64,000 nt of DNA from Eledone cirrhosa (Eukaryota): positions 51,522,001 to 51,586,000 of the forward strand of contig OZ024742.1 of the NCBI GenBank assembly GCA_964016885.1, given 5' to 3'. Below the pieces are notes generated by a model. It was not told the origin of the DNA and did no database searches. It saw only the letters and a list, made by a program, of their open reading frames with translations. Shown one piece after another: positions 1-49,316 of this stretch; positions within the stretch are counted from its first letter, which is position 1, and each line of letters begins with the position of its first letter. A program made the position numbers and the translations under genes.

Positions 1-824
1 GTTGTGTTAGGTATACAATTGGCGATATTTTCACTAAAAGCAATCTTTCTGTATTCCTGTATTTTGATTTTTGATCTATGGATATCACCCCCCTTTTTTT
101 CTCTTTTCTATTTACTTCAAAAACCTTGTTTGTAAATAATGTTATTCTTTCTTCCCCATTTCCTTAACATGTTCAACATCACATCATTTTCTCTCCAACA
201 TTTTACACCAATACGAATTCCCCCTTTGATAATGCGTTAAATGGTGAAACCGGTATTAGACAATTATTAAATTTATAAATAAATAAATAAATACCATTGT
301 TAATTAATAAATAAATTAACTAATACCTTAACACTTCACACAGAGTAAAATATTTTGTTTTAAACAATTTCTAACCCAGAAAAAAGAGAAAAAATAAAAG
401 GAAAATAATATAATCTTATTCCTAATAATCGTCTTTTTCTCCCTATTTTCAAATATATATATATATTCCTACTCGTGTGCTCCTTCCCCACATTTTATAA
501 TTATATATATATATATATATATATATATATATATATATATATATATATATATATATATAGATATATATATATATATATATATATATACAAATATACAATA
601 ATGAGAGGTTTACAGATATATGTGCATACATACATATACATGTATATATAAACATATTTTTCACAAGTATGTGAGATTGTATGTTGTCGACCTTAACCAG
701 TGTTACTCTATGATTATGAGGGACAAGATAATCGAAATAATTAAATTGATACAATATCAGAGCTATGTAAAATATTATAAAATAAGAAGGAATAATAGAT
801 ACAATATCCCTATTTTTTTCTTCG

Positions 825-915
825 TCCCGACTGTACAGTTTCGCTGGTCACTATGCAAAAATGTTATATCATAGATATGTAAAATTGTTGTGAGGTAAGC
901 CAGCTTATCAAGGGA
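825..915 (-). ncRNA. Mirror copy of the 1710-1800 hammerhead
   Basis: Reverse complement of 1710-1800 with identical core and stems. Confidence 0.8.
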
Positions 916-1191
916 GCACCTCAGGGAAGAGCCCTAATTACATACGTCCGTAGCAAGCGAGAACCTCTCAAAAAGGCGGATGGAGACTCTATCACGTGAT
1001 ACACCGGTCAAGAAAGGGGATTAATCCCTTGTAGAAGTGAAAAATATCACAGAAGGCGGAGGGGGATATTAATATGATACAGAGGCTACAGAAGGGTTGT
1101 AAGGTTGAATAGAAGTGTATATAGTGTTTGCTTGAACGCAGTCACTATACTTCCGTGGTTACTCTACCGTGAGGGAGTTAGAGACAATAAT

Positions 1192-1333
1192 TGTTTCTAC
1201 TTTAGGCACAAGGCCAGACAATTTACCAGTGCATTACTGGTACTTTATTTTATCGACCCCGTAAGGATAAAAGGCAAAGTTAACCTCGGCGGAATTTGAA
1301 TTCAGCATGGCAAGGGCCGTAACTCTATGCGTC
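1192..1333 (-). mobile_element. tRNA-derived SINE (family 1) inserted in family A
   Basis: Reverse complement reads ..GAATTCAAATTCCGCCGAGGTTAACTTTGCCTTTTATCCTTACGGGGTCGATAAAATAAAGTACCAG.., matching copies at 9.4-9.8, 14.8 and 27.2 kb. CAATAAT on both sides (probable TSD). Confidence 0.8.
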
Positions 1334-1709
1334 CAATAATGAGAGGTATACATATATATGTGCATACATACATATACATGTATATATAAACATATATTTT
1401 TCGCAAGTATGCACATATATCTGTATACCTCTCATTATTGTCTCTAACTCCCTCACGGTAGAGTAACCACGGAAGTATAGTGACTGCTTTCAAGCAAACA
1501 CTATATACACTTCTAGTCAACCTTACAACTCCTCCCTAGCCTCTGTATGATATTAATATCCCCCTCCGCCTTCTGAGATATTTTTCACTGCTACAAGGGA
1601 TTAATCCCCTTTCTTGACCGGTATATCACGTGATAGAGTCTCCCTCCGCCTTTTTGAGATATTCTCGCTTGCTACGGACGTATGTAGTTAGGGCTCTTCC
1701 CTGAGGTGC

Positions 1710-1800
1710 TCCCTTGATAAGCTGGCTTACCTCACAACAATGTTACATATCTATGATATAACATTTTTGCACAGTGACCAGCGAAACTGTACAGTCGGGA
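1710..1800 (+). ncRNA. Type I hammerhead ribozyme, U3-A8 core variant
   Basis: TCCC-TTGATAA-GCTGG..(long stem II with inner TGTTA/TAACA hairpin)..CCAGC-GAAA-CTGTACAG-TC|GGGA. Stems I, II and III all pair; stem III is palindromic. Confidence 0.8.
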
Positions 1801-1914
1801 CGAAGAAAAATAGATATATTGTGTCTATTATTCCTTCTTATTTCATAATATTTATATATATATATATATATATATATATATATATATATATATATATATA
1901 TATATATATATATA

Positions 1915-47140: not shown

Positions 47141-47203
47141 TATTGTATTACATATATTTCAAGGGTACCAACAATTTCGTACGCTCTATCATCAGATAAA
47201 ATA
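47141..47203 (-). ncRNA. Hammerhead motif with 2-nt insertion after the core
   Basis: TATTTTAT-CTGATGA-TA-GAGCGTAC-loop-GTACCCTT-GAAA-TATATG-TA|ATACAATA. Confidence 0.55.
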
Positions 47204-47330
47204 CGAAGTGTGTTCTATAAATTTTGACATATCCAAGAATAATATATCTTAACGGTTCAAGTTTTCCTTGGATAGTGAAGGTGAAGGGATAAGAAAAGAA
47301 AAGTCATGTATATATATATATATATATATT

Positions 47331-47880
47331 TATAAAATTATTAAGTCAAATATGTAAAATTTGGCTTCGTTTGTTATAAATTATAGATATACTGCTATAT
47401 ATATTTTGCTGACTGCCATCATTGGCTGTGACCTCTTCATGAAGTCGGAATTGGTGTGACAAAGACAGGTACACATGTTGTCGAAGTGTGTTTTACTCCG
47501 TCAATATATCGATATCTCCAGCTCCTGTTTGTGTTGATATTCCTCTGAGGAACTGGAACCATATTTTTCCAATTCCTCAGAGGAATAACAACACAACCTG
47601 GATTTGGACATATCGATGTATCGATATAAAACACACTTCAACAACATGTGTATCTTTCCCTGAATAATTCGGACTGCCTGAAGAGGTGACAGCCAATGAT
47701 CACCGTCACCGAAATATATATAGCAGTATATCTATAATTTATAATAAATGAAGCCAGATTTTAAATATTTGACTTAATTATTTTACATTACTCCGGAGTA
47801 AACAAACCAACCTGCGTACATCGTTGAGTGCTCCAATCTGCATACTGTGGTGTCAGTAAACAAACAACATATACTCAAAA
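47331..47880. mobile_element. ~460-bp imperfect fold-back with an HHR in each arm, plus a 3' extension
   Basis: Centre TATTCCTCTGAGGAA..TTCCTCAGAGGAATA (~47538-47587); arms extend to ~47331 and ~47786. Confidence 0.8.
47673..47727 (+). ncRNA. Canonical type I hammerhead ribozyme
   Basis: ACTGC-CTGAAGA-GGTGAC-14nt-GTCACC-GAAA-TATATA-TA|GCAGT; perfect stems I and II. Confidence 0.88.
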
Positions 47881-47900
47881 TATATATATATATATATATC

Positions 47901-48110
47901 GGAAAAGAATCAGGACTCCGACGGCTGAGTTCCGGTCATTTCGACAGCTAGATCCGAATTGACTTTGGATCTAGCTGTCGAAACGGCCCGAGCTCAGCCG
48001 TCTGGGTCCTGACTCTTTTCCTATAACCCTCCTCTACTAACCTAAGTATAGAGTACTCTGGTGCATTATGGTCCACCTGGTTCCTTACCACACTTTCTTA
48101 CTTTCTTTGC
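47901..48110 (+). mobile_element. 120-bp hairpin carrying the 3' half of an HHR, plus tail
   Basis: 47901-47958 is inverted at 47964-48021. Right arm contains GAAA-CGGC-ccgagctca-GCCG-TC. Related to the start of the 1915 element and to ~25250-25285. Confidence 0.65.
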
Positions 48111-48939
48111 ATTATATATATATATATATATATATATATATATATATATATATATATAAAAATGTGTGTGTATGTGTATGTGTGTGCGTATGTGTGTGTG
48201 TCTATGTGTGCACGGGTGTGTGTGTCAGTGCATGGGTAAGATCGGTGTAGATCTTCGTTTTTGTAGGCAGTTATATGTTATTATAAGTACGTTGCAAGTG
48301 CCTAAAGAAAGATACAAAATAAAGATACAGATTACCATACCATTTCAGTATGCTCAACATATTCGATGGAATATCATATAGTAAATAAATACCTAATTAT
48401 CTGCGAATTTATACAAAGGTTCCAATGAGCAATCCACGCAGCAATATAATATACACAGGAAATCAGGAAAAATTAGACAAGACTTACTGTAAACTTTAGA
48501 AGAATTTATTGATGCAGAATATTTACTAGCAAGATCTACATTGCTATGAAATCCACTAAGTGCAATGCGTTATTAGCGTACGTATATCATCAGTCTAACC
48601 ACTGAAAACTGAAGCTGGGGAATGAAGCTATGAGAAATTATACATATACATCCATAATCCATGTTTTCATGGTAACGGGTCTAAGATACTATACATGTTG
48701 ATTTTTACAACCATATACGTGCATATAAATAAATAAATAAATAAATAAATATATAAATAAATAAATGTATCAATACGTATTTATATATTTGGATACAAAA
48801 GTATGTAAAATACTAATTGGATGGGTGGTGAACTTGAATTCAGTAGTGCTTGCTCCTGGTTTTCTGGCTGTTGTTGGTATTGCTGTTTATATATATATAT
48901 ATATATATATATATATATATATATATATATATATATATA

Positions 48940-49316
48940 TATATATAAGTATGTATACGTACATACATATATCCATACAGACGTACAGTAGTATATATAT
49001 ATATATACATGCATGCACACATGTATACATGTACGTATGGATTTACCGAACAATTATTATAATGCTCGGTGTGTTTGTAAACAAACATACTGAATTAAGC
49101 CGTACAGTGTTTAGCAACCATCGTTGCCCTTTTGTTCAACACTGACAAAGGAACGATGTACTAGTTTCAAGCTTATTAGCTATCGTCAACTCTGTATACA
49201 TTCCTGCCAGATGATTGAACGTCTAAAAGTATATACTTTCCTTATACTTTCAGACGTTCAATCATCTGGCAGGAAGGTATACGGTGCTAACGATAGCTAA
49301 TAAGCTTGAAACTAGT
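48940..49316. mobile_element. Diverged family D copy with fold-back ending at the HHR cleavage site
   Basis: 49160-49235 is inverted at 49244-49316. Confidence 0.75.

Follow-up and report, generated by a model that had tools for sequence, protein, structure and literature searches.

Tandem repeats that carry hammerhead ribozymes have been argued to be nonautonomous derivatives of Penelope-like elements (PLEs), by Li, Clavereau, and Pollet in 2026 (bioRxiv 10.64898/2026.07.22.740005) and in work on animal retrozymes (PMC7229834). PLE insertions in general are described as combining truncation, inversion, and partial tandem arrangement (Craig et al., bioRxiv 10.1101/2021.04.23.441226), and PLE hammerheads with a short palindromic stem III as acting as dimers (PMC4209133). 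Within one PLE group, the Naiads, Craig et al. 2021 report no standard hammerhead, only core or half-core matches (PMC8557442). Eckert et al. named a further order of the conserved hammerhead blocks, type SGC, and showed its cleavage; RNAs of this order have so far been reported only from metatranscriptomes, and that paper places none of its RNAs in the genome of a known organism except one weak GCS candidate (PMC10085705). Here we describe a 64,000-nt stretch (the window) of the 3.0-Gb genome of Eledone cirrhosa, which contains four dispersed, protein-free repeat families, A to D. We consider it probable that all four are nonautonomous Penelope-like retroelements, and that family B carries a self-cleaving hammerhead of scrambled block order, predicted from its sequence and likely inherited from Naiads.

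The original prediction for this window, made from its letters alone, treated the hammerheads of the four families as alike, but that of family B is rearranged. It matches no fold of type I, II, or III, and on the minus strand its blocks run in another order: the stem III strand with the cleavage site (S), then GAAA (G), then CUGANGA (C). This is the type SGC order, and all core nucleotides are present. The window has one such site, compared with none in 40 shuffles. Genome-wide, an exact pattern in which stem I was left free matched 2,116 sites (1,060 + 1,056), compared with none for the reversed pattern, and looser patterns matched 1,681 and 1,947 sites. Of 115 distinct genome copies, 114 pair at 5 or 6 of the 6 stem I positions, but only 3 of 141 chance matches from metagenome and viral contigs, which served as the control for the pattern scan, do so. 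We aligned 37 of 76 distinct copies, picked to span the stem I types (alignment A1); over stem I, stem III, and a distal helix, IIIb, 95.4% of cells pair, and 8 of 17 pairs are changed on both sides. The covariation score was 0.412 (0.203 when shuffled), and slid registers gave at most 54.7% pairing. Stem I and distal stem III covary; proximal stem III is invariant except for a G-U variant. Subfamily monomers are only 53 to 63% identical, with the ribozyme region the most conserved.

The junction of stem III and IIIb consists of a 3-nt bulge followed by G.A and A.G, the standard kink-turn (k-turn) sequence. GA stands on the bulged strand in most copies, and of 89 copies, 28 have TGA and 59 have TTA (2n = U); U at 2n, a known natural variant that folds (PMC5061560), is found in the window's family B subfamilies. 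Judged by these letters, the k-turn would bend stem III, and so sharp a bend would permit the spacing of a single base between the end of IIIb and stem I.

Classic stem II pairing, of 3 bp, occurs only in subfamily B2. The missing stem is likely replaced by an extra upstream strand and two further helices, which we counted in the 89 of 115 copies that keep the upstream anchor. Helix IIa joins the strand after CUGANGA to one at the far 5' edge (78 to 83 of 89 copies per pair, one pair compensated) and is present in 13 of 14 minimum-energy folds; a hairpin, P0, follows the IIa strand (82 to 89 of 89 per pair, one pair compensated); and helix IIb joins a fourth strand to the bases preceding GAAA. 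Folding z-scores of the domains are modest (+0.3 to −2.9). A stem II partner seen by eye 45 to 50 nt downstream of the core was dropped, being missing in two subfamilies. In the fold that we propose, stem III and its extension IIIb would form one long hairpin, folded back by the k-turn; its 20-nt loop, holding the cut site, the stem I strand, and the strand preceding GAAA, would pair with the two strands that flank the hairpin's own base, while closing helix IIa and side hairpin P0 would complete a junction substituting for stem II.

A second ORF-less (open reading frame-less) family, of different sequence, has the same wiring: 298 exact sites with a tandem spacing near 800 bp, read at loci L327 (G000:C17, motif near 2,731,100) and L328 to L357, with further variants at L388 to L393. 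It keeps helices I, III, IIIb, IIa, and IIb, but where family B has its k-turn it shows a plain bulge. Of 24 copies, 23 pair at 5 or 6 of the 6 positions of stem I, all 24 at 5 or 6 of 6 in IIa, and 22 at 4 or 5 of 5 in IIb; IIIb pairs at 5 or 6 of 6 in 29 of 31. A looser pattern for more rearranged families recovered mostly damaged family B copies and a few variants of the second family.

Read by eye, two octopus Naiad consensus 3' ends in the supplement of PMC8557442 also carry the family B wiring, k-turn included. They are the sequences that precede the Naiad_Ovul and Naiad_Omin headers, by file order Naiad_Obim and probably Naiad_Ovul. Both run from the IIa strand through P0, the IIb strand, IIIb, TGA, the cut site, the stem I strand, and GAAA to a bulge plus GAT, stem I, CUGAUGA, and then N-GGA, and the P0 loop of both is TTATTTTA, as in most B subfamilies. 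Seventeen Naiad metadata rows of that supplement are labelled HHR_core or HHR_half_core. Because the second family and the two Naiad ends show the same wiring, family B is likely a nonautonomous Naiad derivative, and its Naiad partner would be expected in the E. cirrhosa genome. As a separate observation, one consensus in the supplement reads by eye as a hammerhead whose blocks run C-S-G, which is the family B order circularly permuted.

We give an even chance to a broader reading, in which family B and the Naiads share an architecture beyond the six published three-block permutations, and this is the ribozyme missing from Naiads: four strands in place of three, a stem II recast as a multihelix junction, and a k-turn-folded stem III, possibly switched on by a host L7Ae-family protein that binds the k-turn, with thousands of chromosomal copies in animal retroelements missed by standard descriptors. 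Several results weigh against our main explanation of the four families and of the family B ribozyme. Two registers tried for a classic stem II pair in 45% and 36% of cells, no better than shuffles, and position 10.1-11.1 pairs in 54 of 89 copies. In A1, the five pairs of stem III nearest the core are invariant, and 53 of 500 shuffles matched the count of pairs changed on both sides. The subfamilies being related, the covarying changes amount to few independent events, the handful of splits between subfamilies. IIb hardly varies within family B and is weaker in B2, and for P0, IIb, and IIIb the registers used were those that paired best, so their counts lean upward. Three of the four family B copies in the window are damaged and the fourth is truncated. 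No coding Naiad was found beside family B in about 0.9 Mb of the 3.0-Gb genome, searched with Neptune-like and Hydra-like queries only. The 5' ends of insertions are not enriched at the predicted cut (B, 1 of 46 and 1 of 35; A, 0 of 39; C, 0 of 40) among loci picked for covering the cut, family D being confounded in this test. Finally, 8 of 9 Xenopus retrozyme dimers tested reportedly failed to cleave in vitro (bioRxiv 10.64898/2026.07.22.740005).

The lack of enrichment at the cut and the absence of a classic stem II would also suit a fold that is real and conserved but a poor self-cleaver, used for binding a Naiad protein or as an initiation signal for it, or cleaved only with the help of a protein; consistent with this, a PLE hammerhead studied in vitro required its protein for cleavage and was dispensable for insertion (PMC11167929). 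We think this unlikely: all catalytic positions of family B are kept while N7 varies (T, A, C), and the second family and the published Naiad ends retain the same core. It is far less likely still that family B is a standard type II or III hammerhead that borrows blocks from neighboring units, its scrambled order being incidental. By the logic of the sequence, blocks in tandem arrays do recur in standard order across units about 520 nt apart, but the covarying IIIb holds the GAAA and CUGANGA blocks together within 19 nt, 10 nt link the cut site to GAAA, and block spacings are identical in solo copies and in the published Naiad ends.

How the four families spread can be read from their insertions. 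Self-BLAST of the window found all four where the original prediction had placed them, and it was right that they are unrelated (their monomers have only TA-rich runs in common), that each full unit has a single hammerhead core, and that the monomers lack coding capacity: the longest ATG-initiated ORFs in doubled monomers span 30 to 168 amino acids (A, 84; B1, 168; B2, 66; C, 30; D, 81), with no matches to the PLE proteins of the window. The genome-wide search that it proposed returned more than 1,200 first-look candidates for each family: 1,201 for A, 1,231 and 1,415 for the two B queries, 1,827 for C, and 1,228 for D. For each query, 40 candidates were scored and 25 to 30 fetched, which are the copies nearest to those of the window rather than a random sample. 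Every family has two preferred 3' ends entering (TA)n, variable 5' ends, and frequent 5' inversions (A, 14 of 25 loci; B, 5 of 30 and 16 of 30; C, 13 of 25; D, 15 of 25). The (TA)n runs had been described as flanking the arrays; they are present but specifically tag the 3' end, which lies in (TA)n at 20 of 25 (A), 28 of 30 and 25 of 30 (B), 22 of 25 (C), and 22 of 25 (D) loci. In family B, the two 3' ends are about 40 nt apart, as in the PLE tail; Frangieh et al. attribute 3' ends that come in pairs to internal initiation at either of two sites (PMC11167929). All families show the hallmarks of PLE-type insertion: 3' ends fixed in AT-rich targets, 5' ends truncated or inverted, and partial tandems.

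Since ORF-less units stand head to tail, with fixed 3' ends in (TA)n and with 5' truncation and inversion, this anatomy well supports nonautonomous hammerhead repeats mobilized by PLEs, as the original prediction held; the idea was already in print, and the prediction missed the rearranged hammerhead. Families A to D likely spread by using the enzymes of Penelope-type elements. A PLE GIY-YIG endonuclease would nick (TA)n, and the PLE reverse transcriptase (RT) would initiate internally downstream of the ribozyme, at either of two sites (in B, about 80 and 120 nt away), copy beyond a single unit on a multimeric or circular RNA, and terminate with truncation or inversion. One PLE has been reported to use uncleaved RNA and internal initiation in vitro (PMC11167929), so multimeric linear RNA accounts for the arrays as well as circles do.

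The fuller model put forward originally, in which each unit is cut to a monomer, circularized, and copied by rolling-circle reverse transcription, overlaps with spread by PLE enzymes and differs solely in its insistence on circles; we regard it as possible, somewhat short of an even chance. Forward parts exceed one unit at 9 of 25 (A), 15 of 30 and 11 of 30 (B), 20 of 25 (C), and 24 of 25 (D) loci, so that the arrays cross the predicted cut site, and circles have been demonstrated for other animal retrozymes (PMC7229834) and circular templates proposed for PLEs (PMC4209133). However, uncleaved multimeric RNA, the dominant substrate of one PLE in vitro (PMC11167929), yields the same arrays, and DNA sequence cannot separate the two. 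The data sets listed as containing the query, which was drawn from family B only, included no RNA run, and three contig sets of unknown kind, all from one study, contain family B and are uninformative on RNA ends or circles. We consider it quite improbable that the monomers are simply terminal repeats of coding PLEs truncated on insertion rather than independent units. Truncated coding PLEs do show the same anatomy (for example, the family at 55868-57265), and the 25 to 60 loci read per family are near-identical; against this, unit ends join directly to unit starts, with no ORF between, in arrays that reach 6 units or more, and the fetched loci share no coding 5' flank, the shared flanks of A being a SINE-like piece (short interspersed nuclear element). 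A linkage of the monomers to a PLE ORF, also raised at the outset, was not seen in the loci read: PLE fragments in the flanks of A to D and of the second family have mixed orientations and spacings, with no shared junction and no autonomous partner among them. Nor is the shared design peculiar to A to D, because the coding PLE family of the window shows it too.

In both family B arrays of the window the units lie on the minus strand. The B1 array (7815-8693) comprises a unit (7823-8370), a partial unit (8371-8643), and a 51-bp inverted arm (8643-8693); its rearranged hammerhead domains, at 7852-7954 (several point changes) and 8400-8506 (stem III broken), have predicted cuts after 7908 and 8459. 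The B2 array (35490-36104) has a 509-bp unit and a 102-bp partial unit without inversion. Its domain at 35525-35627 shows the complete architecture but has G in place of U16.1 (cut position predicted after 35580); the copy at 36034-36104 has an intact core (stems I, III, and II of 6, 5, and 3 bp; predicted cut after 36089) and is 5'-truncated, with its outer helices absent.

The hammerheads of families A, C, and D are ordinary type I, and the short palindromic stem III common to them predicts cleavage as dimers. A type I scan of the window found 9 sites, compared with a shuffle mean of 1.07 (maximum 2, 30 shuffles), while the best 150 of 161 Rfam matches to the window included no hammerheads, those listed being nearly all AT-repeat microRNA noise. 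The family A array (596-1853) consists of a 590-bp unit (596-1185) and a partial unit (1334-1411), both on the minus strand, and an inverted arm (about 1378-1853). Its hammerhead at 829-911 (minus; predicted cut after 829) has a U3-A8 core variant (TTGATAA) and a palindromic stem III, and a second copy lies at 1714-1796 (plus). Family C (27861-29646) has 554-bp units on the minus strand up to 28889 and an inverted arm at 28885-29646, with cores starting at 28134 and 28687 (minus) and at 28939 and 29496 (plus); its hammerhead has a C.A mismatch at the base of stem II. Family D (44951-46201, minus) has 2.6 units without inversion and minimal type I cores at 45295 and 45778 (minus; predicted cuts after 45265 and 45748), and in a diverged D-like copy (48946-49316, fold-back near 49243) both cores are broken. 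Among genome copies that match the flanking patterns, which leaves nonmatching copies out, the core is kept in 23 of 23 for A (the same U3-A8 core), 34 of 36 for C, and 32 of 32 for D. A fold-back had been given as part of the shared design and is present at four of six loci (A, B at 7815, C, and the D-like copy at 48946), those at 35490 (B) and 44951 (D) having none. The predicted unit lengths held for B (548 and 509 bp), C (554 bp), and D (472 and 483 bp), but the local period of A is 738 bp, not 589 bp, because a 148-bp, putatively SINE-like insertion (1186-1333, minus) occupies the unit junction.

At 9 of the 18 junctions read (window and loci L061 to L085), a SINE-like element occupies this same position in the unit of family A. 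These insertions look independent because their 5' truncations and target duplications differ; exact patterns found the site filled 20 times and empty 39 times genome-wide. The element appears to have a strong target preference for this site.

The window also contains other mobile elements. A coding PLE (30125-34217 and 55868-57265) has an RT region (31155-32414) followed by a GIY-YIG region (30618-31154), both weak Pfam hits below cutoff, and carries fold-backs and a type I hammerhead repeat of its own, with cores at 30344, 56078, and 57081; judging from its cysteine linker, it is probably Neptune-like. PLE fragments with a DKT motif (6759-7490, 20544-21104, and 63459-63998) probably belong to the Hydra clade; the family at 19655-23401 and 62259-64000 has 140-bp tandem units. 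Type I hammerhead cores were found by the scan in other repeats at 4973 (minus), 25036 (plus), 47195 (minus), and 47678 (plus), and by eye only at 3982 (plus) and 62114 (plus); two of these cores lie inside fold-backs, at 24909-25142 and 47333-47785. The remaining features are a long interspersed nuclear element (LINE) with a 790-amino-acid reading frame and (AAT)n flanks (36168-39058 and 15029-15858), another LINE, broken but with frames for endonuclease and RT (39497-44172), and a decayed coding repeat in two old copies about 70% alike (25675-26204 and 58255-58747).

Families A, C, and D add new members to a known kind, hammerhead repeats already published as nonautonomous PLE derivatives. 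Like the animal non-LTR (long terminal repeat) retrozymes (Cervera and de la Pena 2020, PMC7229834; bioRxiv 10.64898/2026.07.22.740005), they consist of tandem units that lack an ORF and each carry one type I hammerhead, and a GC content below 45% and a proposed dependence on PLEs fit as well. Head-to-tail ORF-less units are found in all four families and the type I hammerhead in these three; family B differs in its S-G-C order. Units here are longer than the 170- to 400-nt RNAs of PMC7229834 and within the 51- to 972-bp range of bioRxiv 10.64898/2026.07.22.740005. With the minimal PLE hammerheads (PMC4209133), A, C, D, and the coding PLE of the window share a short palindromic helix III and an unpaired base starting stem II; they differ from them in the U3-A8 core and 62-nt stem II region of A and in a mismatch at 10.1-11.1 in C and D.

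If the reading of family B holds, a chromosomal, high-copy animal hammerhead with new wiring would widen the known fold space of this ribozyme, genome surveys that rely on type I to III descriptors would undercount ribozymes, and the reported absence of hammerheads from Naiads, an argument that PLEs can do without them, would be overturned. The domain is about 105 nt long and has a precise predicted cut, and hence is readily testable. A literature search on noncircular permutation or type SGC hammerheads returned Eckert et al. and papers mentioning the term, in a corpus mostly of nonsubscription papers; across the mostly nonsubscription papers covered, we found none that links a hammerhead with a k-turn and Penelope or a retrotransposon, and nothing on the family B motif under additional hammerhead helices or octopus hammerheads. 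A word search of the supplement of PMC10085705 found animal and k-turn terms absent.

Family B is predicted to be a new variant of a known ribozyme class. With the type SGC hammerheads (HRIMA-1 and variants; Eckert et al. 2023, PMC10085705) it shares the S-G-C order and full core, a pseudoknotted stem I, and a short connection leading from that stem toward the GAAA block. In the published RNAs, as described there, stem II is normal and covaries, and a helix connects stems I and II on their other sides, whereas family B is chromosomal, lacks that stem II, and has in addition a k-turn, one more strand on the 5' side, a side hairpin, and a closing helix. With the Naiad PLEs (PMC8557442) it shares (TA)n targeting, partial tandems, 5' inversions, and a 30- to 40-bp tail but, unlike them, has no ORF.

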